Positions 2,910 to 19,435 of a stretch of 62,063 bases of DNA, filler included, from Nitrospinae bacterium RIFCSPLOWO2_12_FULL_45_22 (GCA_001803565.1; 6 parts of 6 records of this genome joined end to end with filler, not necessarily neighbours in it). Notes generated by a model.

Positions 2910-4243
2910 CTATGGTTGAAGAACAGGCATTAATAGAATCTATATTGATAGAGAAGGATAACCTGGACCTTATCTTTGATTTTGTCTCTGACGGTATCTT
3001 TACCCATGACCAGCAGATGCTGATCACCAGCTTCAATACCGCGGCAGAAAAGATAACGGGCTTTAACCGGGCAGAAGCCATAGGTAAAAGGTGTCCGGAT
3101 ATATTCGCTGGGCCCCTTTGCGGTACCCATTGCATCCTCCATCAAGCTGCTAAGGCCAGCCGGTGGATAAAGGACCAAGAACTTCAGATAATGGATAAGA
3201 ACGGCCGCCCCCGGACTATTATCCTTAATACCGCCATTCTACATGATAAAGAGAAAAAACCGTGGGGAGTAGTGGCCATTTTTCGCGACATGACCGAGCT
3301 AGTCTCCTTGAAGAGGCAATTAAAGGAGCGGTTTCAATTCCATAAACTGATCGGGAAGAACCACCAGATGCAAGAGGTTTATAATTTGATTGAAGATATC
3401 GCCGATAGCGATGCTACGGTACTAATCCAGGGTGAAAGTGGTACTGGTAAAGAGCTAGTAGCCCAGGCTATTCACTATCAAGGACCGCGGACTAATAAAC
3501 CCTTTGTTAGGGTCAATTGTTCCACCCTGGCAGAAAGCCTATTGGAAAGCGAGTTGTTCGGCCATGTGAGAGGGGCTTTCACTGGGGCTATTCGGGATAA
3601 AATAGGCAGGTTTGAGCTAGCCCAGGGCGGCACTGCATTTCTGGATGAGATCGGCGATATAAGTCCGGCTATCCAGGTGAAGCTATTGCGGGTACTACAG
3701 GAAAAGGAGATCGAACGGGTAGGGGACACTAAGAGTATCAAGGTGGATGTGAGAGTTATAGCGGCTACAAACCATGATCTAAAAAGATTAATGCGAGAGG
3801 GAAAATTTCGGGAAGACCTCTTTTATCGCCTCTACGTCATCCCTATCCACTTGCCACCTTTGCGCGAGCGCAGGGAGGACATACCGCTCCTGGTAGAACA
3901 TTTTATAAGACAATTTAAGGGGCAAACCGGCAAAAAGATCGAAAGTATCTCCGAGGAAGCCCTGAAGCTCCTATTAGATTATTCCTGGCCTGGTAATGTT
4001 CGGGAATTAGAGAATGTTATAGAACATGCCTTTGTCAAGTGCCGTGTCCCCTTGATCCTCCCTGAACATCTCCCCCAGGAAATCCTCGGGGCAAAGATAG
4101 TTTTCGGTGCCCGAAAACGACCCCGCCTCACCGAAGAACAACTCCACCAAGCCCTTCAGGAAACCCGAGGCAATAAGGCCCGGGCTGCCAGGGAATTAGG
4201 TATAGGCCGAACGACCCTGTGGCGCAAGCTAAAAAAAGGGTAA
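2906..4243 (+). CDS. PAS-domain sigma54-dependent Fis-family transcriptional activator
   Basis: N-terminal PAS, GESGTGKE, GAFTGA, FLDEIG, WPGNVREL, C-terminal HTH. Confidence 0.93.
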   Translation: MTMVEEQALIESILIEKDNLDLIFDFVSDGIFTHDQQMLITSFNTAAEKITGFNRAEAIGKRCPDIFAGPLCGTHCILHQAAKASRWIKDQELQIMDKNGRPRTIILNTAILHDKEKKPWGVVAIFRDMTELVSLKRQLKERFQFHKLIGKNHQMQEVYNLIEDIADSDATVLIQGESGTGKELVAQAIHYQGPRTNKPFVRVNCSTLAESLLESELFGHVRGAFTGAIRDKIGRFELAQGGTAFLDEIGDISPAIQVKLLRVLQEKEIERVGDTKSIKVDVRVIAATNHDLKRLMREGKFREDLFYRLYVIPIHLPPLRERREDIPLLVEHFIRQFKGQTGKKIESISEEALKLLLDYSWPGNVRELENVIEHAFVKCRVPLILPEHLPQEILGAKIVFGARKRPRLTEEQLHQALQETRGNKARAARELGIGRTTLWRKLKKG

Positions 4244-4394
4244 CTGTTTAGCCACGGTAGGCCTTCACCGCAGACGCTGAGACGCAGAGTCTTCTTACGG
4301 ATCGTAAGGAGTAAGGTGTGAGGGGGCATCTCCTTGCGCCTAACGCTCTCACGCCTTACGGGTCTTCTCTGCGCCTCTGCGCCTCTGCGGTAAA
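4240..4394. repeat. Nested inverted-repeat element with periodic arms
   Basis: Outer arms TTCACCGCAGACGCTGAGACGCAGAG / CTCTGCGCCTCTGCGCCTCTGCGGTAAA; inner 7-nt-periodic arms CGTAAGG-AGTAAGG-TGTGAGG / CCTAACG-CTCTCACG-CCTTACG. Confidence 0.75.
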
Positions 4395-4404
4395 ATAATA
4401 CAAT

Positions 4405-6798
4405 ATGGAAGCAGTTAAAAAAGAGACTCTCAGCCAGGAGATTTATAATTTCGCAACCCTCGCTGCGTTGCGGGAAGCAGTCCTTAAGGTTGCTGAGGCA
4501 TCTGATAAAGACCCTTTGATCTATATCTTACCCAATGCCAGGCGAATACCCCTAAAAAGCCCCACTGGTCAAATAGGTATTTTCCCGGCTTCTTTCAACC
4601 CTTTAACCCTAGCCCATGTTGCCGTGATAGAAGAGGCCAGAAAAATCTTTAGCCTGGAAGAGATAATCCTGATCCTGGACATCAAAAACATTGATAAGGA
4701 CATATTTGGCGCTTCTTTAGAAGACCGGTTATTGATGCTCCAACTCTTCATTACTCCCTTCCCCTACTACAGGATAGGATTGGCCAGTCACGGCTTATTC
4801 CTCCATAAGCTCCAGGCCCTAAAGCGTATCTATCCAGAATCGCTCGGGTTCAATTTTATTGTGGGCTACGATACCATAGCAAGGGTCTTAGATAATAAGT
4901 ATTATGCTGATAGAGAGCGGGCCCTAGATGACTTATTCAGCCAGAGCCGGTTTCTGGTTGCTAATCGCTATGATAAAGGGGAGAAAGAGATAGAAGAGTG
5001 GCTTACTCGAAAAGAAAATAAAAGGTTCACCTGTCTACCGTGCCGGCACAGGCAGGGAGACCGGATAATACCCTTTAACATCCCGTCCCGCTATGCCTTT
5101 ATCACCTCTACTTATATTCGAGACTGGATAAAAGAAGGTAAGCCCATAACAGAACTGGCCCAGTGGGTGCCGGAAGAGGTTCTTTCTTTTATCCAGCAGA
5201 CCGGACTGTATCATCTGCCTCTTCTAATAGAGCGGGAGGGTGAAAAAATTACGATAGATAGATACGATTTGCGTATCCGACTCATCCATCACCTCTTTGC
5301 CCTGAATATCCCGGCTAATCAAAACATAGACCTGAAGAAGCTGATAGAAATAGCGACGTCTGATACCCCCCTGGGAGAGCAAATCAGAAAAATGCTGGCC
5401 ATCCCGTCCCACTGCCTCCCTCCCCGCCCTTATGTAGCCGCACCGTCTAACGGTGCCACATTACTAGGTAACTTCAGCTATAATAAAATCTCTTACTCTT
5501 TGCCCCAGGCCCTGGTAGAAGCTCAGCGCTGCTTGCAATGCCCTGAGCCACCCTGCCAGCGGGCCTGCCCGGATAATATCCCGATAAAACAGCTCCTGGA
5601 AAAAATTTCTAAAGGAGAATTTAAAGAACCAATTGATTGCCTCAGACAGAGACATCCTTTAGCTGGCATGACCGAATATCTCTGCCAAACCCAGGAGAAC
5701 TACTGTGAGGCCCATTGCCTCTTAGCCACCCTTCTAGGGCTAAACCACGGAGTAGCTATCCAGGAAGTATTGAAGACCATCCTCACAAAAGTGAGCCGTG
5801 AGCCGTTAGCAGTGAGCAGTACAGAGCCCGCGGGCTCTTCACTCCTTACTGCTTACTCCTCACCCCTCACACCTAAGATTGCCATTGTTGGTTCTGGTCC
5901 TGCGGGCTTAGCGGCTGCATTTGCCCTGGCCCGAATGGGCTATCAGGCGCATATATACGAGAGGAAAGATAAGATAGGCGGCATACCCCGCCATGAAATA
6001 CCACCTTTCCGGTTCCAGCCCCAACAAGTCTTTGAAGGAATAGAGGAAGAACTAGAATCCCAAGGCATAGAGGTATTTACTAATATCGTTATTGAAAAGG
6101 ATAAGGGCCTTAAAGAATTGCTAAGAGAGGGGTACCGGGCCATATTCCTTGCCACGGGTCTGATTAAGCCATTGCGACTAAATATCCCAGGAGAAGGATT
6201 ACCCCAGGTGATAACTTCGGTGGATCTCTTCACCCTCTATCATCAGCAAGGATTGGATTATTTACTAGACCGGTTCTCTGCTAAGCGGGTAATAATTACT
6301 GATAGTGGCAATACTGCTATGGATACCAGCCGGTTTTTGTTGCGATTAGGAGCGGAACCTATTATAATTCATTGGCGGGCGCACCCCCGGGCCTTACTTA
6401 AGGAAACCTGGGCTGCCCAAAGAGAAGGGGTGAAGTTCTTGCACCTCTGCCGGCCTATCCGGTTCATAGGGGATGATGCAGGAAACTTGAAGTATATCTT
6501 GGTCATCCGAACGGAATACGATAGCCAGACCCAGCAGGATAACCCTATCCCAGGTAGTGAATTTATCCTCCGGGCCGATTATGTGGTCCATGCCATAGGC
6601 TCGCTACCAGACCTGGTACTCCCGGGCTTAAACCTCACCCCTGAGGGCCATGTGATAGTGGAGCCGGAAACTATGGCTACTTCCCTCGACGGTGTATTTG
6701 CCGGGGGCGACTTAGTAGAGAAAGGGAATATATCAACCGCTATCAGGGATGGGAAGAGGGCAGCGCACAGCATTGCCAGTATCTTGGCAAAGGAATGA
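4405..6798 (+). CDS. Fusion: cytidylyltransferase-superfamily (NadD/Pof1-like) nucleotidyltransferase + GltD/PreT-like FeS-flavoprotein
   Basis: N-term GIFPASFNPLTLAH, IVGYDTIARVLDNKYY, ITSTYIR; C-term RCLQCPEPPCQRACP, IAIVGSGPAGL, IPPFRF, TSLDGVFAGGD. Confidence 0.8.
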   Translation: MEAVKKETLSQEIYNFATLAALREAVLKVAEASDKDPLIYILPNARRIPLKSPTGQIGIFPASFNPLTLAHVAVIEEARKIFSLEEIILILDIKNIDKDIFGASLEDRLLMLQLFITPFPYYRIGLASHGLFLHKLQALKRIYPESLGFNFIVGYDTIARVLDNKYYADRERALDDLFSQSRFLVANRYDKGEKEIEEWLTRKENKRFTCLPCRHRQGDRIIPFNIPSRYAFITSTYIRDWIKEGKPITELAQWVPEEVLSFIQQTGLYHLPLLIEREGEKITIDRYDLRIRLIHHLFALNIPANQNIDLKKLIEIATSDTPLGEQIRKMLAIPSHCLPPRPYVAAPSNGATLLGNFSYNKISYSLPQALVEAQRCLQCPEPPCQRACPDNIPIKQLLEKISKGEFKEPIDCLRQRHPLAGMTEYLCQTQENYCEAHCLLATLLGLNHGVAIQEVLKTILTKVSREPLAVSSTEPAGSSLLTAYSSPLTPKIAIVGSGPAGLAAAFALARMGYQAHIYERKDKIGGIPRHEIPPFRFQPQQVFEGIEEELESQGIEVFTNIVIEKDKGLKELLREGYRAIFLATGLIKPLRLNIPGEGLPQVITSVDLFTLYHQQGLDYLLDRFSAKRVIITDSGNTAMDTSRFLLRLGAEPIIIHWRAHPRALLKETWAAQREGVKFLHLCRPIRFIGDDAGNLKYILVIRTEYDSQTQQDNPIPGSEFILRADYVVHAIGSLPDLVLPGLNLTPEGHVIVEPETMATSLDGVFAGGDLVEKGNISTAIRDGKRAAHSIASILAKE
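5030..5056 (-). repeat. 27-bp palindromic element in-frame within CDS
   Basis: Reverse complement CCTGCCTGTGCCGGCACGGTAGACAGG matches 21004-21030 at 24/27 positions. Confidence 0.75.
5791..5870. repeat. Heptamer-periodic hairpin element in-frame within CDS
   Basis: GTGAGCC GTGAGCC GTTAGCA GTGAGCA ... AGAGCCCGCGGGCTCT ... TCACTCC TTACTGC TTACTCC TCACCCC TCAC. Confidence 0.75.
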
Positions 6799-6802
6799 TG
6801 AT

Positions 6803-7177
6803 ATGAAAGAGGCATTAAGATACTTAAAGAATGCCAGGGAGAGGTTAAAGTCTGCACCAGTAGAGGATAATACCTATACCGATGTTAAGCCGGTGCGGGA
6901 GGCATGTGGCACGGCTTATCTTGCTGTGCTTAAGGCCATTGACGACTATTTACTGGAAAAGGGTGTTGAGAGGAAGAAATTGCCTAAATCCTTTGAGGCT
7001 TACATGGAAATGTTCCGAAAATACGCCCTGATACATGATGGTAAACAGATACGAGAATTTGATAAACTTTATGACTTATTGCATATTGCTGGTTACTATC
7101 AGGGGCTCTTAAAGGATGTGGCGGTTGTTAAGGATGCTATAAAAGCTGCCGAGGACTTCATCAAAAAGCTAAAATAA
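6803..7177 (+). CDS. DUF5618-like (HEPN-like) small protein
   Basis: MKEALRYLKNARE..YTDVKPVREACGTAYLAVLKAID..LHIAGYY; ATG 6803 just after the upstream stop is preferred. Confidence 0.7.
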   Translation: MKEALRYLKNARERLKSAPVEDNTYTDVKPVREACGTAYLAVLKAIDDYLLEKGVERKKLPKSFEAYMEMFRKYALIHDGKQIREFDKLYDLLHIAGYYQGLLKDVAVVKDAIKAAEDFIKKLK

Positions 7178-7186
7178 GGGCAAGGA

Positions 7187-8002
7187 ATGAGCAAGCTGGA
7201 TGACCTAAAGAATATCCTTAGGGATATGGGCCGGGTGATGGTAGCCTTTTCTGGCGGAGTGGATAGCAGCTTTCTACTCCGGGTAGGTAAAGAGGTCCTG
7301 GGGGATAATATCCTGGCCGTGACTGCTCGCTCTGAAACCTACCCCCAGGCCGAGCTAGAAGAAGCTAAAAAAATCGCCCAGCTCATAGGCATAAGGCACC
7401 TGATTATAACCTCAGAAGAGTTAGAGATCCCGGGTTTTCAGGATAATCCCCCCAACCGATGCTACTATTGTAAGAAAGAGCTTTTTGAAAAGCTCAAGGA
7501 ATTAGCGGTTCAAGAAGGGATAGATTTTATTGCTGATGGCTCCAACTGTGATGATTTGGGAGACCATCGCCCCGGTATGTTGGCCGCCAGAGAGCTGGGT
7601 GTTCGTAGCCCCTTGAAAGAGGCTGGTTTAACCAAAAAAGAGATCCGAGAATATTCTTATGCACTGGGGCTCCCTACCTGGGAAAAGCCTTCTTTTGCCT
7701 GCCTGGCCTCCCGGTTTCCCTATGGCGAAAAGATCAGTCAGGAAAAGCTCCGCCGGGTTGACCGGGCAGAGGAGTTTTTGAGGGCTAAAGGGTTCAAGCA
7801 GTTACGGGTCAGGCATCATGATGGTATTGCCCGGATTGAGGTAGACAAAAAAGACCTGGGGAAGTTTTTGCAATACAACCTTGCTACAGAAGTGGTGGCT
7901 AAGCTGAAGGAATTAGGTTTCAATTATATAACCCTGGACCTGGAAGGGTATCGCATGGGCAGTATGAACGAAGTCCTTCCCCTGGAAATGAAAAGAAAAT
8001 GA
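7187..8002 (+). CDS. larE: ATP-dependent sulfur transferase, LarE family (TIGR00268-like)
   Basis: PP-loop AFSGGVDSS, RCYYCK, DHRPG, KPSFACLASRFPYG, LRVRHH, GYRMGSMN. Confidence 0.92.
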   Translation: MSKLDDLKNILRDMGRVMVAFSGGVDSSFLLRVGKEVLGDNILAVTARSETYPQAELEEAKKIAQLIGIRHLIITSEELEIPGFQDNPPNRCYYCKKELFEKLKELAVQEGIDFIADGSNCDDLGDHRPGMLAARELGVRSPLKEAGLTKKEIREYSYALGLPTWEKPSFACLASRFPYGEKISQEKLRRVDRAEEFLRAKGFKQLRVRHHDGIARIEVDKKDLGKFLQYNLATEVVAKLKELGFNYITLDLEGYRMGSMNEVLPLEMKRK

Positions 8003-8250
8003 TCCGGAATCTGATCTTTATATTTCTAATCTTAGCCCTTTATCAGATGTGGAAGGGTTTCACCAGGGGCAGCAAAACAAAGCATTTCTCCCAAAATAAT
8101 GGGCTGAGACAGATAGATGATGAGATGGTAAAAGACCCTCACTGCCAGGTCTATATCCCTAAATCTAGCGCCATAAAGAGGCACATAGCTGGACAAGAGC
8201 ACTATTTCTGCAGCCCAACTTGCGCAGAAAAATTTAAAGAACAGGCTTAA
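7999..8250 (+). CDS. Small membrane-anchored YHS/TRASH metal-binding protein
   Basis: N-terminal TM helix; MVKDPHCQVYIP...YFCSPTC. Confidence 0.8.
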   Translation: MIRNLIFIFLILALYQMWKGFTRGSKTKHFSQNNGLRQIDDEMVKDPHCQVYIPKSSAIKRHIAGQEHYFCSPTCAEKFKEQA

Positions 8251-8459
8251 CAGACTAAACCTTTATTCTCCGACAATTCTCTGCGGCCTCAGACCCCAAT
8301 TATTTTTCTTTCCACTCTTCTATCTGACATTCAAGAGGTTTCCCTTAGTGCTTCATTTCATAAACACAGTTACGTATTATGCCTATTTTTTGCCTCTCCT
8401 GTATTCCTGGTTTCCTTATCATAAGCACTTTCTCTCAAATACGTCACCGTAATTATGGA

Positions 8460-10043
8460 TTAGAGTTTGATCTTTTTGGCATAAAGGATAATAGGCCAGG
8501 CCCTGATCTCGGCCAGTACTGACTCTGGTATCTCAGCATCAACACTTACCAGGGCAGTAGCCATACCACCGATAGTCTTTCGGCCCAGGTTCATACCGGC
8601 AATATTTATCTTATTATTCCCCAGGATAGTGCCAATCTTTCCTATTACTCCAGGCATATCCTGATTGTAAAATACCAGCATGTGCCCTGACAGGATGGCT
8701 TCTAATGGAATGTTATTTATCTCTACTAGACGGGCATCCCGCCGGCCGTATAAAGTGCCTGCTACTGACCCGGTCTCTTTATCGGTAATTGCCTCCAGGC
8801 GAATCAGGCTGGAATAATTTTCCGTTTGGCTGAGGATAGTCTCTGTTACCTTAATACCCCGCTCTTTAGCTATTATGGCAGAATTAACTAGATTTATTCG
8901 CTCTTTTATAAAATGCTCCAGCAGTCCTTTCAGGAGAGAAGCGGTCAGGTAACGAGTCTCTAGCTCTGCTATCTCACCGTAATAATTTATCTTAACCTCT
9001 TTAAGGCCCCCCTCCAATAACTGGGCCTCCAGGCCCCCCAATTTCTCTGCCAGGGTTATATAGGGTCCCATACGGGCATAGAGCTCAGCATTCATAGAAG
9101 GGAGGTTCACCGCATTTTTAACCTCCCCATGCTTAAAAAAGCTGATCATCTGCTGGGCTATTTCTATCGCAACATTGTCCTGGGCCTCTTCGGTAGCAGC
9201 CCCTAAATGGGGGGTACAAATGACGGCATCAAGCTCTATAAGGGGGTTATCGCCGGGCGGTTCTTGCTCAAAGACATCCAGGGCAGCGCCCGCTACTTTT
9301 CCTGATACCATAGCCTCATAGAGGGCCTTCTCGTCTATGATACCTCCCCGGGCACAATTGATTATCCTTACCCCTTTCTTCATCTTTTCAAACTCTTTTT
9401 TCCCCAACAGATAAGCTGTTTCATTAGTCTTGGGGGTATGGACAGTAATATAATCAGAACGGGCCAGGAGTTCATCAAACCCTACCAGGGGTGCCCCTAA
9501 GCTCTGGGCCATATCGGAAGATATATAAGGATCATAAGCAATAGTGACCATGCCTAACCCCTGGGCCCTTTGTGCTACTAACCTACCAATACGCCCTAGA
9601 CCTATTATACCCAGGGTTTTGTTAAAGACCTCTACCCCCATGAACTTACCCTTTTCCCATTTCTTGCCCTTAATAGAGCTGGTGGCTTGAGGTATCTTCC
9701 TGGATAAGGCCAGCATGAGAGAGATAGTATGTTCTGCGGTGGTAATAGCATTCCCTTCCGGGGCATTCATAACGATAATACCCCGCATGGTGGCTGCCTC
9801 TAGATTAATATTATCCACCCCTATCCCGGCCCTACCAATAATCTTGAGATTATCGGCCGCCGCTATTATCTCGGCTGTGACTTTGGTACTGCTCCGAACA
9901 ATCAGGCCCTGGTATGGTGGCATCTCCTTGACCAATTCTGCTGGTGTTAAACCCGTCTTTACAGCAACCTCCAGACCGGCCCTTTCCTTTTGCAGGATCT
10001 CCAGACCCTTAGCGGATAATTTATCGCTAACTAAAATTTTCAT
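8460..10043 (-). CDS. serA: D-3-phosphoglycerate dehydrogenase (long form with ACT domain)
   Basis: GRAGIGVDN, GIIGLGRIG, INCARGG, TPHLGA, C-terminal ACT DMPGVIG. Confidence 0.96.
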   Translation of the reverse strand: MKILVSDKLSAKGLEILQKERAGLEVAVKTGLTPAELVKEMPPYQGLIVRSSTKVTAEIIAAADNLKIIGRAGIGVDNINLEAATMRGIIVMNAPEGNAITTAEHTISLMLALSRKIPQATSSIKGKKWEKGKFMGVEVFNKTLGIIGLGRIGRLVAQRAQGLGMVTIAYDPYISSDMAQSLGAPLVGFDELLARSDYITVHTPKTNETAYLLGKKEFEKMKKGVRIINCARGGIIDEKALYEAMVSGKVAGAALDVFEQEPPGDNPLIELDAVICTPHLGAATEEAQDNVAIEIAQQMISFFKHGEVKNAVNLPSMNAELYARMGPYITLAEKLGGLEAQLLEGGLKEVKINYYGEIAELETRYLTASLLKGLLEHFIKERINLVNSAIIAKERGIKVTETILSQTENYSSLIRLEAITDKETGSVAGTLYGRRDARLVEINNIPLEAILSGHMLVFYNQDMPGVIGKIGTILGNNKINIAGMNLGRKTIGGMATALVSVDAEIPESVLAEIRAWPIILYAKKIKL

Positions 10044-11947: not shown

Positions 11948-12352
11948 TCAGATTTTTTTTGCGGTATAAACCGCAGCAATACCACCGGTTAATGGATAAT
12001 AAGTTACCCCCTGGAATCCACCCTCTTCCAGTTTTTCCTTTAAAGCCTCTCCATAGGGAAAAGCTAGGACAGATTCCGGTAGATAGTGGTAGGCTTTGCG
12101 ATTCTTTGATACTACCCCACCCAGCCAGGGTAAGACCTTCAAGAAATAGAGGTAGTAAAGCCTCTTGAATAAATAATTTTCCGGGTTACTAAACTCCAAA
12201 ATAACTAAATAGCCCCCCGGTTGCATCACGCGGTACATCTCGATCAAGCCCCGGGCTGGGTCAGCAAGATTACGCAGGCCAAAGGCTATTATAATAGCAT
12301 TGGCCGTTTCTGTCATAAACGGTAAGGAGAGGGCATTAGCTAAAGATAGCTT
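11948..12352 (-). CDS. ubiE: UbiE/MenG-family methyltransferase, 5'-partial
   Basis: ALSLPF..AFGLRN..EMYRV..PGG.LVILEFS..AYHYLPESV; cut by the linker. Confidence 0.85.
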   Translation of the reverse strand, partial: KLSLANALSLPFMTETANAIIIAFGLRNLADPARGLIEMYRVMQPGGYLVILEFSNPENYLFKRLYYLYFLKVLPWLGGVVSKNRKAYHYLPESVLAFPYGEALKEKLEEGGFQGVTYYPLTGGIAAVYTAKKI

Positions 12353-12722: not shown

Positions 12723-13157
12723 ATGGAGCTGGGTGAGCTCGCAAAAATGCTTAAAGACTACTTTGGGAAAAGAGATGAGGTGGTACTGGCTTTCCTTTTT
12801 GGCTCGTGGGCGAAGGGCCAGCGAGGTATTGACTCAGATATTGATATCGCTATCTATTTCCAACCCAAAGGCCATAGCCTGGAATGGGAAAAAACAGACT
12901 TTCAATATGATAGTGAAGACCATATCTGGTTAGACATCGAGAGGATTGTAGGAAGGGAAGTGGACCTCCTGATCCTTAACCGGGCTGCGCCAACCATCGC
13001 CGACAGTGCCCTAAGAGGGATTCCCATTATCATTAAAAACCGTAATCTATATCTGGATTTTCTTTTGAGAATTACCTCGGAAGCCATTGATTTTCGGCAA
13101 TGGGTTGAGGCATATTGGCAGTATAAGGAACAGAGGAAGCATGGGACTCCTGCCTGA
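12723..13157 (+). CDS. Minimal nucleotidyltransferase (MntA-like antitoxin)
   Basis: LFGSWAKG..DSDIDIAI, REVDLLILN. Confidence 0.88.
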   Translation: MELGELAKMLKDYFGKRDEVVLAFLFGSWAKGQRGIDSDIDIAIYFQPKGHSLEWEKTDFQYDSEDHIWLDIERIVGREVDLLILNRAAPTIADSALRGIPIIIKNRNLYLDFLLRITSEAIDFRQWVEAYWQYKEQRKHGTPA

Positions 13158-13209: not shown

Positions 13210-13542
13210 ATGAAAATGAATGTTGATAAAAAATTAGATCAGATCCTTAAGAAACTAAAGAAGAAATTAAGCAACCTATATGGGGAGAGGTTTAGAGAGT
13301 TGATTCTTTATGGTTCTTATGCCCGTGGAAAAGCGAATAAGGACTCGGATATTGATGTTGTGGTTGTTCTTGAAGGGAAGATAGTCCCAGGGCAAGAAAT
13401 AGACCGTATGCTTGATGTAATAACGGACCTGAACCTTAAATATGATGAACTTATCTCTGTCTACCCAATATCCTTAAATGACTTGCCCATTACAAAGAGT
13501 CCTCTGCTTTTACGTGTTAGAGCGGAGGGTGTGAGGATATGA
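13210..13542 (+). CDS. Minimal nucleotidyltransferase (MNT antitoxin)
   Basis: LYGSYARG..DSDIDVVVV, ends AEGVRI and overlaps the HEPN gene. Confidence 0.9.
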   Translation: MKMNVDKKLDQILKKLKKKLSNLYGERFRELILYGSYARGKANKDSDIDVVVVLEGKIVPGQEIDRMLDVITDLNLKYDELISVYPISLNDLPITKSPLLLRVRAEGVRI

Positions 13543-13933
13543 GTGAGATTGAAAACCTGCTTGCCCGGGCTCGCAGATATATCAAATCTGGTAATCTCCT
13601 TTTAGCAGACGGAGATTATGAATCTGCTGTATCCCGTGCCTACTATGCCATGTTTTATTCCACCGAGGCTTTGCTACTTACTAAAGGGTTATCCTACTCG
13701 AGCCATAAAGGTGTTATTTCTGCATTTGGAAGGCATTTTGTAAAGACCGGGATCTTCCCCACAAATCTTTCGCTAAGTCCCTTACCCGGGCCTTCCAGAA
13801 GAGACAGGTTGGTGAATATGAGTTTACTTTTGTTATGGCAGAAAACGAAGCCAGAGAAATACTTGAGGAAGCTGAAAAATTTATAAAAGTGGTCGTTGAG
13901 TATCTGAAGAGCAGTGGCTACAATGTACAGTAG
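13539..13933 (+). pseudogene. HEPN-domain protein, frameshifted
   Basis: SRAYYAMFY, SSHKGVISAFG in frame 0; the continuation FAKSLTRAFQKRQVGEYE...AEKFIKVV is in the -1 frame from ~13769 to TAG 13933. Confidence 0.85.
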
Positions 13934-13993: not shown

Positions 13994-15010
13994 TTGGAAA
14001 TGCCAATAGACCAAGAAAATATAGACCGAGAAAATAATGAGAGAGCGCTTAGCAGGTTGATAGAACTTCTTAAAACTGGCCGAGCCCTGGCCTTTGTCGG
14101 TTCGGGTAGCTCTAAAAGGGTGGGTTATCCCGATTGGGATGAACTACTTTCGTTGATGGAGGGAGAAATTCGAACAAAAGATCCTACATTTAACGGGTCT
14201 TTCCACAGAGAAGCTGGAGATACCCTCTGGCATGCTTATAAATTAAAAGAAAGACTCGGCGAAAACTTTTACCCCTTTATCAAAAAAACCTTTGAACCTA
14301 AGAATAATCGGCATAATGCTTTCCATATAAATTTGATGAGCCTTTCCTTCCAACATATCATTACATCAAACTATGACTCAGTATTAGAGGATGCTTTTTC
14401 TGGGTTGCGAAAATCCAAACCGGTTGAAAGATTCTGTTGGAATGAAAAAGAAAAATTGTGCGACTTTATCCGGCGGATGAATGATCCATTGTATAAAGAT
14501 ACCATACAAATTTTTTACGTTCATGGTCGATATGATTCTCAGGATTCAATTGTTCTCACCGAAAGGGATTATACGAATCGTTACCATGAAGGCAATCTTG
14601 CTATAAAATGTCTATGGCTTATAGCGGCAACAAGGCAAGTAGTATTTGTCGGATTTAGCTTTCAAGATTTTGATCTTCTTTCAGCATTCCGGCAGGTTCG
14701 AGGAGATTTTGGGGGAGGTGATTCACGGCACTTTGCACTAGTAGGGATTGAGCCAAACAAAGATCGTATAATTCGACGCAATTACCTTAACGATAAATTT
14801 GGTGTAGAACCGATATTTTATGACATTATTGAAGGAAAACATGACGAGCTAGATAAATTGGTAATAAAAATACTCGGCGAATTTGGTCTTAAGACATCAT
14901 TGATGGATGTAATTGAGCCCAAGCATGATTCAATTGATGAGGATGTAAGACGGCTTCAGGAGTATACTACAAAAGCATATGATCAAATAAAGAGTGGTAA
15001 ATCAAAATGA
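13994..15010 (+). CDS. SIR2-like (SIR2_2) domain protein, putative NADase effector
   Basis: FVGSGSS..GYPDW, ITSNYD, VHG, VLTERDY, FVGFSFQD; start TTG 13994 or ATG 14000. Confidence 0.9.
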   Translation: MEMPIDQENIDRENNERALSRLIELLKTGRALAFVGSGSSKRVGYPDWDELLSLMEGEIRTKDPTFNGSFHREAGDTLWHAYKLKERLGENFYPFIKKTFEPKNNRHNAFHINLMSLSFQHIITSNYDSVLEDAFSGLRKSKPVERFCWNEKEKLCDFIRRMNDPLYKDTIQIFYVHGRYDSQDSIVLTERDYTNRYHEGNLAIKCLWLIAATRQVVFVGFSFQDFDLLSAFRQVRGDFGGGDSRHFALVGIEPNKDRIIRRNYLNDKFGVEPIFYDIIEGKHDELDKLVIKILGEFGLKTSLMDVIEPKHDSIDEDVRRLQEYTTKAYDQIKSGKSK

Positions 15011-18000
15011 TCCGGTTAGAACGTAAGAAACTTTTAAACGAACTAAATAGAATGTCCGATATTGGGCACCTTTTAGTCATTGGGGAACCAGGTATCGGAA
15101 AATCATGGATTTTAAATGAGCTTGTGGTCCAAAGATATGAGCAGAAAAAAATCACATTGCTCCTTAAAGCCGATGAACTAGAGATTTCCTCAATGAATGA
15201 TTTTAAAACTGCCCTGAATATCAATAATGAATTGGATACTGTGTTAAATAGCCTTAGCAAAGGTGAACATGGAGCTCTTATAGTTGATGCCTTGGATGCA
15301 GCCCGCAGCGAACCGAGGCAAAGAGCTTTCCGAGATCTGATCCATCAAGTTCAGACTCAATGTCCTGATTGGTCGGTGGTTGCCAGTATACGGATTTATG
15401 ATGCCAGACGTTCCCGGGAACTCCTTTCCCTTTTTCCCAGTGGCTCAATGGATACTACTGAAGAATTTCGATGCCCGGACATTCGTTACCGTCACCTATG
15501 GGTTCCCCTCTTAACCGAGGAAGAGATTCGGGATGCCATCCGCCAGGAACCTCGCTTGCGGCCTTTTTATGACAAAGCTACTCCGCAATTACGACAAATA
15601 TTACGGAACCCTTTTTACCTTTGGTTAGCAAATGAACTCATCGAGGAAGGGGTTAATGTTAATCAGATCTCTTCTATTCAGTCTGAGGTACAACTACTTG
15701 GTTTGTATTGGCATGAGCGGATAAATAAGAAGCCGGACGCAGAGGACAGAAGGATGCTGTTGGTCAATGCAGCTAAGGCCATGGTGGATAGCCACTCCCT
15801 TTCTGTGTCTCGATCGGATGTGTATCAACAGCCAGGTTTAACCGGAGCGTTTAATGCCTTGCTGAGTGAGCAAGTGCTAAAAGAAGTTACAGTATCAGGA
15901 GAAAGGCTGGCTTTTGCCCATAATATGCTTTTTGATTATGCGGTTTCGAGGCTCCTTATTCCAGAAGAGCCGAAAGAGTCCCTTCAATTTCTGATAGAGG
16001 AAATAAGCAGGCCCATTTTTTTAAGGCCAAGCATTACTTACTACTTTGCCCGCCTCTGGTATGATGAACGGGATCTCTTCTGGAAAACCTTCTGGCACTT
16101 TATGTTTGATGAAAAGGGGGAGATAGGGGAGCATATTAGAGTTCTCCCGGCCTTAACCATCCCAGCCGAAGTGAGCGATGCCGATGATCTCCAGCCTTTA
16201 ATTGATAGATTAAAAGAAGACAAAGATTTGATCAAAGAGGGAGCGAAAGCGGTACAGCGAGTCCTCCAATGTTTGCAATCATTAAAAGGTGCACCGGAGC
16301 CACAAAAGAATTTGTCTTGGGTAGAGTTTTTTTATCGCCTGCGGGAACACCTTTCTATTGGATTTATCAATGAATATGTCCGGTTACTAAATTCGATGGT
16401 AGATATTTGGGATCAATGGAAGCATCCTGAGCAGCATAAAATAGCAGTGACGTGCAGAAAAACCCTTGAATGGACCTGGGGTCCACCCAAGGGTTTAAAT
16501 GAGGCTCAAATTAGAAACCTTACCCGGATGATAGGTGTCTGGGTAGTCCCTCTGGTATGTAAAACCTTTGGTGAAAATTCGGTGGAGTCACGGAAGTTAT
16601 TGCAGAATATTCTTGAGCGGATCAGACAGCCTGCAACTCCTACCCAAGAGATTTATCGGCTTACGCATGAAATTGCGCACCTCTGGCCCTATGATCCGGA
16701 CTTTGTAGCAGATATTTATAAGGCTGTCTTCGAATATGAAGAAACTTCAGCGGAGAAAACCATATTGAGCTCCGGTGTTGTAGGCCTGACAAGCACCCGT
16801 CGGCAAGACTATCAGATGTGTTACTACATATTGGAGGAAGAATTTCCCAAATTTCTAAAGACGCACCCTATGCCGGCCACCCGGGCGATGGTCTGGGCAG
16901 TAAATGCCGCTACCAAGCGGGAACATGTATTCAGATATTCTTCTGCTGTTCCTAAAGATTTGGAACCCTCCCCGTTTCCTTTTAATGATAAAACCGCCCG
17001 TTATTTACCTGATCCTAGCTATGTATGGGATCAGGGTGATTTAATTGATCACTATTACTATAAAAAAATGCTATCCCATTTAGACATCTTTTTAGAAGAC
17101 CTGGCTAGGTCAAACAATGGTAAGGCGAAAGAATTGCTTACCAATATTCTGAATGAAATCGTGAAAGAAAATGAGGTTGCGGTCATCTGGAGACATATCC
17201 TGAAACTCGCTATTAAGCATCCTTCCTTTTTTATCCAGGATATCTATCCTCTTCTCACTGCCGAACCTATACTGGTTTGGCCTGAGACTAATTATGAAGT
17301 GGGAGAATTATTAAAGGTTGGCTTTGAGTATCTCGAAGCAGAGCAGCGTCGGCAAATTGAGAAATCATTGCTCTTCCTACCAAATGCTACCCAGGCACCT
17401 ATGAATCAGAAAGGCTTGGAAAGGCTTTATCTAACGTTAATTTCCTGTATCCCAGAAGGGTTATTGACATGTGAGGAATCACGTAGAATACTTAGTGCGC
17501 ATAGGGAGAGCGGGGAAGGGATTCCAGAAAATCGGTCTCATAGTCCAATATTTGAATTCTCAAGTAAAAAATCTACGGAATCTGATTGGCTAATGGAGGA
17601 AGGGGCGGATCTCACTACCCCTGCAAATAAAAAGTTAATCGAGTTTTCCAACCCCGCCAGGGAGTTCGAAGACCAACATCTTAACAAAATACCTTCGATA
17701 GAAGCCTGTGAACAAGTCCTTCCGCAACTGGTGAAGCTAAATGACTATTTAGCCAGCAGTGCCAAAGATATGGATGAACCGGTTCGGGAATCGGCATTAA
17801 AACACCTGGCAGGGGCTTGTGAGACCATAGCCCGCACCCATGATCTCCCATATGATCATGAAGCCTTGAAACTAGCCCAGAAAGTATTTTATCTTGCTGG
17901 ACAGGATCGTTCACCGGAATTTAATCCAAAATACCACGCAACCTTTGACTCTCCCTCCTGGTCTCCAGCGCCCCGCATCGAAGCCGCCCAAGGAATCATG

Positions 18001-19104
18001 CACCTTGTCAGTCGAGAAGAGTTTGCAACTGAAGAGAACCTTAATTTAGTAGAAAAGCTCTCACAGGATCAGGTTCCGGCGGTTCGGTTTCACATTGTGA
18101 TTAATATATTGAAACTTTATTATACGGCCCCGGAAAAGCTGTGGGAAATAGCTCTTCGCATAGCAGAGCGTGAGCCAACTAATGGCGTCCTAACCGGTCT
18201 TGCCGAAGCACTAAGGGATGCAGCCAGTGTACAACCTGAAAGGGTACTGGATGTATTAGAAATAATATGTAAGAGACAACCTTCGGCAAAGAGAAAAGGT
18301 ATTTCCTTGGTTGACCCCTGTCTCTCCGCGATTGCAGGTTTATTTATTGCCCAAGATAATAGCCGAGCAAATAAGATTCTGAAGCAATATGAATCTGATC
18401 CCATAAAAGGCGCCTCGGAATTGGTATATGCGGTTCTAACAGCCAGTAATTATCTATTGTGTGGAATTGCCAAGAGCTGGAAGGAAGATCCTGATAGTGT
18501 AAGGAAACGAGCCCGAGAAGTCATGTCCCGGGCGTTATCCAGTTCAGAAAAGGGATTCTTAGAACTACAAGAAAAGTTTGGTGATAGCTGGCCAGAGGAA
18601 CGACAAAAGGCAGCTAAAGAACTCTATGAAATCGTAGATCAGGTTGCCACCAGGCTCTATTTCACTGCTGATGTCAGGACTGATTCAAGTAAGCAAAATA
18701 AAATACCGTTGGATGATAGACAGCGGGCACAATATTATCACGAGATTCGTCCATTGATAAAACAGGTCATCAAGATCGGGTTTTCTCCTGGGGGATTCCT
18801 CCCAGCGCGAACTGCGCATTATCTTATGCAGCTATTGAATGGGGTCTTGCCCTATGGTCCTTCAGGGGTTATTGCTCTTGCCGATGAACTGTGCAAAGCC
18901 TCGGCTGCTTATGGATACACTCTGGATTCCCTTGCTATTCAAGAAGTAGTCAAGTTGGTAGAGACCTGCCTGGCGGACTATAAAGAAATTCTACAACATG
19001 AGCAAGATGTAGCCCATCTGGTAAGCCTATTGAATATATTTGTAGAGGCTGGCTGGCCAGAGGCTATACAACTTGTATTCCGGCTAGAAGAAATCTTTCG
19101 CTAA
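15007..19104 (+). CDS. STAND-class NTPase with long helical-repeat C-terminus (Avs/AVAST-like)
   Basis: Walker A GEPGIGKS, Walker B LIVDALD, sensor VVASIR, LRNPFYL, FAHNMLFDY; no N-terminal effector of its own. Confidence 0.85.
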   Translation: MIRLERKKLLNELNRMSDIGHLLVIGEPGIGKSWILNELVVQRYEQKKITLLLKADELEISSMNDFKTALNINNELDTVLNSLSKGEHGALIVDALDAARSEPRQRAFRDLIHQVQTQCPDWSVVASIRIYDARRSRELLSLFPSGSMDTTEEFRCPDIRYRHLWVPLLTEEEIRDAIRQEPRLRPFYDKATPQLRQILRNPFYLWLANELIEEGVNVNQISSIQSEVQLLGLYWHERINKKPDAEDRRMLLVNAAKAMVDSHSLSVSRSDVYQQPGLTGAFNALLSEQVLKEVTVSGERLAFAHNMLFDYAVSRLLIPEEPKESLQFLIEEISRPIFLRPSITYYFARLWYDERDLFWKTFWHFMFDEKGEIGEHIRVLPALTIPAEVSDADDLQPLIDRLKEDKDLIKEGAKAVQRVLQCLQSLKGAPEPQKNLSWVEFFYRLREHLSIGFINEYVRLLNSMVDIWDQWKHPEQHKIAVTCRKTLEWTWGPPKGLNEAQIRNLTRMIGVWVVPLVCKTFGENSVESRKLLQNILERIRQPATPTQEIYRLTHEIAHLWPYDPDFVADIYKAVFEYEETSAEKTILSSGVVGLTSTRRQDYQMCYYILEEEFPKFLKTHPMPATRAMVWAVNAATKREHVFRYSSAVPKDLEPSPFPFNDKTARYLPDPSYVWDQGDLIDHYYYKKMLSHLDIFLEDLARSNNGKAKELLTNILNEIVKENEVAVIWRHILKLAIKHPSFFIQDIYPLLTAEPILVWPETNYEVGELLKVGFEYLEAEQRRQIEKSLLFLPNATQAPMNQKGLERLYLTLISCIPEGLLTCEESRRILSAHRESGEGIPENRSHSPIFEFSSKKSTESDWLMEEGADLTTPANKKLIEFSNPAREFEDQHLNKIPSIEACEQVLPQLVKLNDYLASSAKDMDEPVRESALKHLAGACETIARTHDLPYDHEALKLAQKVFYLAGQDRSPEFNPKYHATFDSPSWSPAPRIEAAQGIMHLVSREEFATEENLNLVEKLSQDQVPAVRFHIVINILKLYYTAPEKLWEIALRIAEREPTNGVLTGLAEALRDAASVQPERVLDVLEIICKRQPSAKRKGISLVDPCLSAIAGLFIAQDNSRANKILKQYESDPIKGASELVYAVLTASNYLLCGIAKSWKEDPDSVRKRAREVMSRALSSSEKGFLELQEKFGDSWPEERQKAAKELYEIVDQVATRLYFTADVRTDSSKQNKIPLDDRQRAQYYHEIRPLIKQVIKIGFSPGGFLPARTAHYLMQLLNGVLPYGPSGVIALADELCKASAAYGYTLDSLAIQEVVKLVETCLADYKEILQHEQDVAHLVSLLNIFVEAGWPEAIQLVFRLEEIFR

Positions 19105-19177: not shown

Positions 19178-19435
19178 ATGATGATAGAAAAGGATGTAGT
19201 ATTAGGTTTTATTGAAGGTCATAGGCGGGCTAATGAACTGGTCAGGGCAGAAAAGAAAAGGCGCCTCTCAGAATTGAGTATAGAAGATTCTCTTCGAGAA
19301 TACGATACTCCCTGTAAAATGTGGGAAGCAAACCCTAATTCGGATAAAGAAGGATTGGAATTACTGGCAAGACAAAAGATAGCTTTTCTCCTTGAGAGGA
19401 GAAGACGATTTAACAAAGTCAGTGGTCTTAAATAA
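19178..19435 (+). CDS. Small helical hypothetical protein (antitoxin-like)
   Basis: 85-aa charged helical ORF with purine-rich upstream region; no partner gene follows. Confidence 0.5.
   Translation: MMIEKDVVLGFIEGHRRANELVRAEKKRRLSELSIEDSLREYDTPCKMWEANPNSDKEGLELLARQKIAFLLERRRRFNKVSGLK

Follow-up and report, generated by a model that had tools for sequence, protein, structure and literature searches.

A SIR2 gene overlapping an effector-less STAND gene in a Nitrospinae genome: probably an intact two-gene operon and a candidate anti-phage system, not a broken fusion

What might explain why, in Nitrospinae bacterium RIFCSPLOWO2_12_FULL_45_22 (GCA_001803565.1), a SIR2-family gene ends in a four-nucleotide overlap with a STAND NTPase gene that has no effector of its own, when a single extra A would join the two into one protein? 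The DNA analysed, hereafter the window, is 62,063 nucleotides (nt) long, filler included, and consists of six parts of six records of this genome joined end to end. An earlier note on it had described the two open reading frames (ORFs), their ATGA junction and the run of four A's (A4) beside it, and had offered three readings: two components acting in trans, a slippage or phase switch that controls a toxic fusion, or a recent inactivating mutation. ORF calls and the junction sequence bear out the ORFs, their coordinates, the overlap and the A4 run. The core of the locus is as follows.

13994..15010, + strand: SIR2-family gene, predicted NADase effector (protein P0001), 338 amino acids (aa) from TTG at 13994, with PF13289, PADLOC and PDB matches
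15007..15010, + strand: ATGA stop/start overlap, read as translational coupling and not as a frameshift scar; a 4-nt overlap is also found in 23 of 89 relatives
15007..19104, + strand: effector-less STAND gene (protein P0002), 1365 aa, with its ATG start inside the ATGA, one frame back from SIR2

The 3' end of the SIR2 gene reads GGT AAA TCA AAA TGA, the A4 run lies at 15004-15007, and SIR2 could alternatively start from an ATG at 14000. The two products sum to 1703 aa (338 + 1365), which agrees with the length that the note had given for a fusion restored by one extra A; the figure comes from addition only. We regard it as probable that the locus is an intact, translationally coupled two-gene operon encoding a SIR2-family NADase and an effector-less, NLR-like STAND protein with a long alpha-solenoid sensor. 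The pair is a widespread, uncharacterised two-gene candidate anti-phage system, Avs-like with its effector in trans, and not a broken fusion. ATGA overlaps by themselves are common in operons, and the feature that stands above chance is the gene pair, which is kept in 89 other loci, not the overlap itself.

Is the separation of the two genes peculiar to this genome? Relatives were collected from species-representative genomes (121 confirmed among 200 pattern matches, the best 80 of the 121 being kept) and from metagenome contigs (at least 215 confirmed among at least 594 matches, the best 80 being kept), and in the survey of 160 loci formed by these two sets the SIR2 and STAND matches were located by script. 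A separate SIR2 ORF ends within 200 nt of the STAND start in 90 loci, 58 have no SIR2 match, six have a SIR2 farther upstream, four run off the contig end and two lack an aligned N-terminus; SIR2-STAND fusions number 0 among the 160. Among the 90 is L081, which matches the window at 100% identity and is probably the same DNA, and leaving it out gives 89 split loci among 159 others. To the question raised in the note, whether homologues are fused or split at the same point, the survey thus answers that they are split, the single fused relative having come from a protein search described below.

The junctions are varied. Taking as the STAND start the ATG, GTG or TTG nearest the position aligned to residue 1 of P0002, the two genes overlap by 11 nt in 30 of the 89 loci, by 4 nt in 23, 14 nt in six, 8 nt in four, 1 nt in four, 17 nt in two, and 20 nt and 127 nt in one each, and the remaining 18 junctions abut or leave a gap of 1-92 nt. 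Relative to SIR2, the STAND gene is in frame +1 in 49 loci, in frame -1 in 35 and in the same frame in five. Curated by hand, the first 80 loci present a junction picture nearly identical to that of the script. The STAND start directly follows the SIR2 stop in the same frame (TAG ATG or TAA ATG) in L085, L086, L132, L047 and L125, where read-through would fuse the two products. The nearest relatives, at 39-52% identity (L082-L089, L096, L132 and L145), are all split, either abutting or with gaps of 1, 5, 23 or 92 nt, and none has ATGA. Because this closest clade is already split, and by gaps, the separation is older than the 39-52% divergence, and on the sequences compared it is the ancestral and normal state of the family, not a lesion.

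A protein search with P0002 returned 83 matches, of which the 11 best (39-99% identity) span 1106-1365 aa, none exceeding the query. One of these relatives, P0003, stands in another record, is 99% identical to the STAND protein and is also 1365 aa long. The sole SIR2-carrying match among the 83 is P0015, a protein of 1704 aa collinear with P0001 plus P0002, whose SIR2 part is 31% identical to P0001 and whose STAND part, from residue 341, is 33% identical to P0002. Searching from the SIR2 side for longer proteins gave no fusion of about 1700 aa, only 13 proteins whose SIR2 domains are distant (25-32% identity) and whose lengths are 933-1150 aa. This is weak evidence, and that search also missed P0015. 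The bacterial hosts of split loci include Poribacteria, Latescibacterota, Acidobacteriota, Bacteroidota, Ignavibacteria, Gemmatimonadales, Desulfobacteraceae, Bacteriovorax, Opitutaceae, Gaiellaceae and Binatia, and the archaeal hosts include Methanosarcina, Methanofollis and another Methanobacteriota metagenome-assembled genome.

The junction of the window itself was compared between samples in assembled contigs. Twenty sequencing runs hold part of the window, and contigs from four of them were aligned to the junction. Those of X5 (14654-15419) and X7 (14923-15091) cross it with A4, 0 differences and no gaps. The X1 contig also crosses with 0 differences but may be the source of the window, and the X4 contig, which has only 16 bases left of the junction, was not counted as bridging.

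Do the two genes behave as one unit? From the 90 split loci we dropped the 14 in which a contig end cuts one gene (L003, L030, L071, L082, L083, L085, L088, L089, L096, L125, L132, L140, L145 and L152). Some relatives have interrupted genes, with a stop inside SIR2 in L039 and STAND ORFs of 118 aa in L053 and 794 aa in L080, the latter two broken or misassembled; such interruptions may be true decay or may come from long-read metagenome assembly. These three were also dropped, as were L086 (1207 aa) and the window copy L081. With the window counted in, 72 SIR2/STAND pairs remain. Pairwise distances among the SIR2 proteins correlate with those among the STAND proteins at a Mantel r of 0.90, which 0 of 999 permutations reach, and because of this correlation the pair is best seen as inherited and transferred as one unit. 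To judge from the invariant residues and the co-divergence, both genes are under selection. A third component was considered and rejected, as no conserved gene beside the pair exceeds 17 of 73 loci, and this commonest flanking cluster is absent from the window.

The SIR2 protein resembles NADases of known defence systems. It matches SIR2_2 (PF13289) at E 5.4e-23 and 82.1 bits, against a Pfam cut-off of 24.5, and the SIR2 regions of ThsA, LmuA and Dsr1 in PADLOC; its nearest solved relatives in the PDB are KomC (E 1.4e-9) and DSR2 (1.5e-8), and also ThsA. Seven residues, G36, G38, T124, N126, H177, G220 and D225, are invariant in all 72 pairs, among them the two predicted to be catalytic.

14369..14371, + strand: codon of predicted catalytic Asn126, in a T-S-N-Y-D motif, invariant in 72 of 72 paired SIR2 genes and aligned to the TTNYD motif of KomC
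14522..14524, + strand: codon of predicted catalytic His177, in a V-H-G motif, invariant in 72 of 72 and aligned to KomC His146

His146 of KomC, the Kongming NADase, is mutated in the deposited entry 9xvc, KomC(H146N). With a SIR2_2 match above the cut-off and both the Asn and the His in place, the protein has the characteristics of a defence-type SIR2 and would be expected to hydrolyse NAD+.

The STAND protein has the parts of an NLR-like receptor, apart from an effector.

15007..16122, + strand: STAND module with a nucleotide-binding oligomerisation domain (NOD), residues 1-372, a P-loop domain followed by helical and winged-helix-like parts (fold model and profile)
15082..15105, + strand: Walker A, G-E-P-G-I-G-K-S, residues 26-33, with G26, P28, G29, G31 and K32 invariant in 72 of 72
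15274..15306, + strand: Walker B region, residues 90-100 (hhhhDxxD at 90-97), with D94, D97 and R100 invariant in 72 of 72
16123..19104, + strand: C-terminal all-alpha HEAT/ARM-like solenoid, residues 373-1365 plus the stop codon, predicted sensor (AlphaFold model)

The position of Walker A some 25 residues into the protein and the lack of an effector domain, both pointed out in the note, were found again, the latter in a Pfam scan; the Pfam matches to AAA_16, nSTAND3 and NACHT are weak, each under its curated cut-off. R129, D132, H305 and N306 join the Walker residues as invariant in all 72 pairs. Both ORFs, in line with the note, are open over the whole 5.1 kb. Residues 1-400 were modelled with AlphaFold from 53 sequences, with a predicted local distance difference test score (pLDDT) of 93.8 and a predicted template modelling score (pTM) of 0.91. 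Foldseek places this model closest to NACHT modules, those of NLRC4, NLRP3 and NOD2 (TMq 0.61-0.67, E about 1e-10), and also to Avs4. By sequence, the nearest solved NTPase is that of SeAvs7, chain 9n00_A, on which residues 16-372 of the family profile align to 276-613 at E 1.6e-21. Residues 373-1365 (993 aa) are modelled as nearly all helix (pLDDT 90.0, pTM 0.78). Walker A and B P-loop, NOD/NACHT-type module and C-terminal solenoid together place the protein, by sequence and model, with the NLR-like STAND proteins.

The sensor model is closest to Avs4 in its phage-portal-bound form. The top Foldseek match is 8dgf_B (E 1.8e-9, TMq 0.39), followed by CAND1, karyopherins, PP2A-A and other HEAT proteins, and the alignment to Avs4 by VIA-align is the longest (801 residues, root-mean-square deviation 9.3, sequence identity 9-11%), its Z of 13.3 being tied with those of the generic HEAT/ARM proteins PP2A-A and importins (12-14), in a range commonly met among helical repeats. 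PADLOC gives a weak Avs4 match on the P-loop region (E 1.3e-6), and Avs4 differs in having a fused effector. The sensor is thus modelled as an Avs-type alpha-solenoid that holds no clue to its target, and no inference of a portal trigger from the Avs4 likeness is justified.

How might an effector on a separate chain be kept at its sensor? Modelling the whole SIR2 protein with STAND residues 1-400 predicts an interface, the score ipSAE being 0.66 (0.64-0.67 over three runs) against 0.00 for the best control; the ipSAE mark applied is one that 58 of 80 solved complexes attain, as against 2 of 110 mismatched pairs. Between runs, at least 77% of contacts agree, the partner pLDDT is at least 77, and the confident interface brings SIR2 residues 312-318, 320-322, 324-326, 328-329 and 332-333 against STAND residues 37-83.

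14927..14992, + strand: SIR2 C-terminal tail helix, residues 312-333, predicted anchor on the STAND P-loop domain (complex model)

The note had remarked that the SIR2 tail looks like the helix that precedes such NTPase domains, and this holds for the fused relatives examined: by eye, with no statistic, the final 45 residues of SIR2 in split loci have helical segments similar to those in the 45 residues that lead into the NTPase of fused relatives, the likeness being seen in P0015, in three SMEK_N-fused forms and in several forms with the unknown domain of about 304 aa, for example ...D-W-L-E-Q...R-M...R-I and D-I-x-x-L-R-x-x-S/T. In the light of the complex model, SIR2 probably docks into its sensor via a short tail helix, and the gene boundary appears to lie just after this anchor helix, which stays with the effector. 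The family is large, its SIR2 effector is consistently a protein of its own, and the specific docking helix predicted for it can be tested. It would be a simple setting in which to study how a NOD activates an effector carried on another chain.

The same N-terminal point of the STAND protein is used by other domains. The 64 loci without an adjacent SIR2 (the 58 with no match and the six with SIR2 farther upstream) mostly carry another domain fused there: a domain of about 304 aa without a Pfam match in 43, SMEK_N in 14, Trypsin_2 in one, and a weak alpha/beta-hydrolase match in two. SMEK_N (PF21941, E about 1e-45) also matches the N-terminal 'REase' part of the PADLOC Aga_REase-PNTD models, and the domain of about 304 aa is the N-terminus of the PADLOC PDC-M54A models. 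In four Poribacteria-type loci (L043, L044, L061 and L062) a SIR2 gene that ends just after its core, without the tail, stands upstream of a SMEK_N-fused STAND gene with its own pre-NTPase helix, an arrangement in which one effector may be in the course of being replaced, or in which two effectors may work together. It is possible, and we put it forward tentatively, that the tail helix is a portable and exchangeable plug for effectors in cis or in trans, one that ends a free SIR2 or a fused SMEK_N, trypsin or unknown domain, and that the split form is a stable non-covalent NLR-effector holoenzyme in which SIR2 is activated by sensor-driven clustering. If so, it would be a bacterial and archaeal counterpart of the adaptor-mediated effector recruitment of animal NLRs, without an adaptor domain, and the four loci with tail-less SIR2 would be snapshots of effector replacement.

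We infer an anti-phage role for the pair, with NAD+ depletion, oligomerisation and a phage protein as the trigger. Coupled translation would give roughly matched amounts of SIR2 and STAND protein, and the C-terminal tail helix of SIR2 would tether it non-covalently to the P-loop domain of STAND. Binding of a phage protein to the solenoid would release auto-inhibition and lead to nucleotide (ATP)-dependent oligomerisation of STAND, this would cluster the bound SIR2 subunits and turn on NAD+ hydrolysis, and the loss of NAD+ would abort the infection. Such SIR2 NAD+ hydrolysis, activated by assembly, is described for fused Avs5 and for DSR2 (Avs5: PMC11897194, PMC12931631).

Which of the known systems does the pair resemble most? 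The term 'Avs-like' used in the note is fair as an analogy; no Avs1-5 model in PADLOC or NCBIfam matched beyond weak P-loop hits. For Avs5 there was no match to either window protein at E <= 0.1 in these two libraries, which we take to contain Avs5 models. In the usual Avs protein the effector is fused at the N-terminus of the same chain, whereas here and in 89 relatives it is a separate ORF. Avs5, exemplified by EfAvs5, is described as a single-protein SIR2-NOD-sensor system (PMC11897194, PMC12931631), and shares with the window pair its modules and their order (SIR2 effector, STAND NTPase, C-terminal sensor) and, by analogy, the presumed logic of an assembly-activated SIR2 that depletes NAD+. 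It differs in that its SIR2 is fused, and in that the window SIR2 is closest among solved structures to KomC, DSR2 and ThsA and the window NTPase is nearest by sequence to SeAvs7. The pair would thus work like an Avs5-type SIR2-STAND protein, but is not an Avs5 member by sequence or architecture.

Avs7 offers the closest solved NTPase by sequence (SeAvs7, PDB 9N00/9N01/9YIX; 9n00_A is identified as the apo form in PMC12803255). The same source describes Avs7 as widespread in bacteria and archaea with many alternative N-terminal effectors, and a wide bacterial and archaeal spread with swapped effectors is common to the window STAND family. The differences are that there is no sequence match to SeAvs7 past STAND residue 372 and that the Avs7 effectors are fused. 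SeAvs7 9N00 is absent from the Foldseek lists for both STAND parts, which says nothing on the likeness of the sensors. Dsr1 is reported to share the Avs7-type sensor, a bilobed TPR structure (PMC12803255), and P0002 has no match to the PADLOC Dsr1 model.

To our knowledge, the characterised bacterial NLR-like defence proteins (Avs, bNACHT) carry the effector on the same chain. The bNACHT genes are described as only rarely in operons, and those operons as poorly conserved (10.1101/2022.07.19.500537). The pair is also reminiscent of the conflict systems in which paired effector-associated domains (EADs) are described as recruiting effectors to STAND or other NTPases (Kaur et al. 2020, PMC7159879): in both, the effector comes from an adjacent gene and is brought to the NTPase core non-covalently. 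Unlike the EAD systems, which use two copies of one small adaptor, one on each partner, the window pair has, in its model, one SIR2 tail helix that contacts the P-loop domain itself, and the STAND protein lacks an adaptor domain, because its Walker A starts at residue 26. A literature search gave no description of this SIR2/STAND pair, and the family may already be among the 589 STAND clades and 684 sensor clusters tabulated in the supplement of PMC12803255.

The closest entry in a defence database is PDC-M54, a PADLOC-DB v2.0.0 system of two proteins, M54A and M54B, known as a candidate only, and the term 'PDC-M54' was not found in the literature search. P0002 matches the PDC-M54A model PDLC04700 at E 3.7e-236, its residues 10-1365 lying on profile positions 308-1657 of 1657, with the N-terminal positions, about 307, absent. 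Because the PDC-M54A match covers the whole length of P0002, its NOD and sensor belong to the PDC-M54A family. The fused N-domain of about 304 aa that M54A carries is absent from the window protein, in whose place there is a separate SIR2 gene. The M54B partner, present in most type-A loci, is also absent beside the pair: a tblastn search with one M54B protein found it in 0 of 90 split loci, not in the window, and downstream in 30 of 43 type-A fused loci, and a PADLOC scan of the flanking ORFs of the window gave no match. Among the type-A loci, L116 has PDC-M54A at 3089-8065 and PDC-M54B at 8014-9579; M54B is a protein of about 500 aa without a Pfam family, and its gene overlaps the end of the STAND gene. 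Because the N-domain and PDC-M54B are both lacking, the window pair is, by its sequences, a sister architecture of the PDC-M54 candidate and not a member of it. For annotation this means that the PADLOC rule, which requires A plus B, would not report the SIR2/STAND pair as a system.

The first of the three readings in the note, two components acting in trans, is the one that the split loci, the varied junctions, the invariant residues, the co-divergence and the predicted docking support. Several points weigh against our interpretation of the pair as an intact operon for defence. Contigs drop rare variants, and a minor A5 subpopulation would be invisible in them. The complex score is a measure of model confidence and was obtained with our own alignments, and because a fused relative and solved effector-NOD proteins exist, the docking result may partly reflect likeness to a known architecture. 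The Avs4 likeness of the sensor, given the tied Z, says little on the trigger. Co-transcription of the two genes is something that we infer only. A low-level -1 slip on the AAA beside the stop is conceivable for this gene, although nothing suggests programming. The local defence context is thin, consisting of toxin-antitoxin-like genes only, with housekeeping mutS and ubiE-like genes flanking the islet, and for no member of the family did the literature search find an experiment on defence, on NADase activity or on binding.

An unlikely alternative is that the operon is conserved for something other than phage defence, with SIR2 acting as a deacylase or ADP-ribosyltransferase under a STAND switch for cellular signalling, or with the pair serving as an addiction or conflict module against plasmids or other elements. 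Many STAND clades are not related to defence (198 of 589 are classed as defence-associated in PMC12803255), there is no experimental link to phages, and the neighbours in the window are mostly housekeeping genes. Against this, the SIR2 is of the SIR2_2 type and its best matches are the defence NADases ThsA, Dsr1/Dsr2, KomC and the LmuA-linked SIR2. Swapping of effectors, among them the nuclease-like SMEK_N and trypsin, takes place at one N-terminal junction, and such swapping is a signature of Avs-type systems. The spread is patchy over many bacterial phyla and archaea, the islet is lower in G+C, and PADLOC lists the STAND family as a defence candidate. Two relatives whose surroundings were inspected both stand beside type I restriction-modification genes, one with a Schlafen/AlbA_2 protein (weaker PADLOC pAgo-model matches) and the other with a PD-T4-6-like kinase gene.

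Much less probable is programmed -1 slippage, ribosomal or transcriptional, at the A4 run, which would yield a minor fused SIR2-STAND protein, this fusion being the active or the regulatory product, in effect a switch of phase or dose such as the second reading of the note had envisaged. The tRNA-Lys on AAA at 15005-15007 could re-pair at AAA 15004-15006 beside the stop and then read the ATG, and read-through at the five related loci with stop and start in the same frame would also produce a fusion. The features of a programmed site were looked for at the junction and the site was rejected: the zero frame holds no X XXY YYZ heptamer, the 83 nt 3' of the junction fold no better than shuffled sequence (z -0.18, equalled by 77 of 200 shuffles), and a run of four A's is short for slippage of the polymerase. 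AAA precedes the start codon in only four of the 23 relatives with a 4-nt overlap, and the 89 junctions have no sequence or frame in common; because the relatives use all three frames and gaps of up to 92 nt, no single recoding mechanism can be common to them.

Least credible of all, to the point of being nearly negligible, is a recent one-base deletion or an assembly error in a once-fused gene, which would make the locus a fresh pseudogene or an ordinary fusion: one A added to the A4 run does give a single frame of 1703 aa and the fused P0015 does exist, but the split recurs at this point in 89 of 159 other loci and a SIR2 fusion in 0, the closest clade is split by gaps rather than by ATGA, contigs from two other samples keep A4 with no differences, P0003 stands in another record at 99% identity and 1365 aa, and neither ORF is interrupted over the 5.1 kb, the catalytic residues being invariant. 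The two-gene operon that we favour thus carries a caution for genome scans, in which an ATGA between the halves of a known fusion architecture usually means translational coupling and not a frameshift.

The stretch that holds the pair is lower in G+C (0.43) than the DNA on both sides (0.47), and the SIR2 gene alone is at 0.38. Its other features are these.

12723-13157, + strand: lone nucleotidyltransferase gene upstream of the pair, in the same low-G+C stretch
13210-13542 and 13539-13886, + strand: nucleotidyltransferase/HEPN pair with a 4-nt overlap, MNT-HEPN toxin-antitoxin-like, directly upstream of SIR2
13896..13924, + strand: promoter-like site between the HEPN and SIR2 genes, TTGAGT-17-TACAAT, 9 of 12 matches, a weak lead only
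19178-19435, + strand: 85-codon ORF after the STAND gene, with no Pfam or PADLOC match and no counterpart among the conserved flanking genes of relatives

Neither the promoter scan (17 sites, against 15.3 +/- 3.4 in shuffles) nor the terminator scan (10 sites, against 7.5) rises above chance, and of the promoter-like sites only that at 13896-13924 is suggestive by position. Farther upstream, a UbiE/COQ5 methyltransferase ORF (11948-12316, - strand) covers profile positions 115-233 only; its 5' part enters runs of N, and the apparent truncation should not be read as a scar of islet insertion. The window nucleotidyltransferases match the PADLOC candidate PDC-S09 (E 1e-35 for 13210-13542). The 85-codon ORF is probably not part of the system, and 3' of it lie lapA-like and mutS genes.

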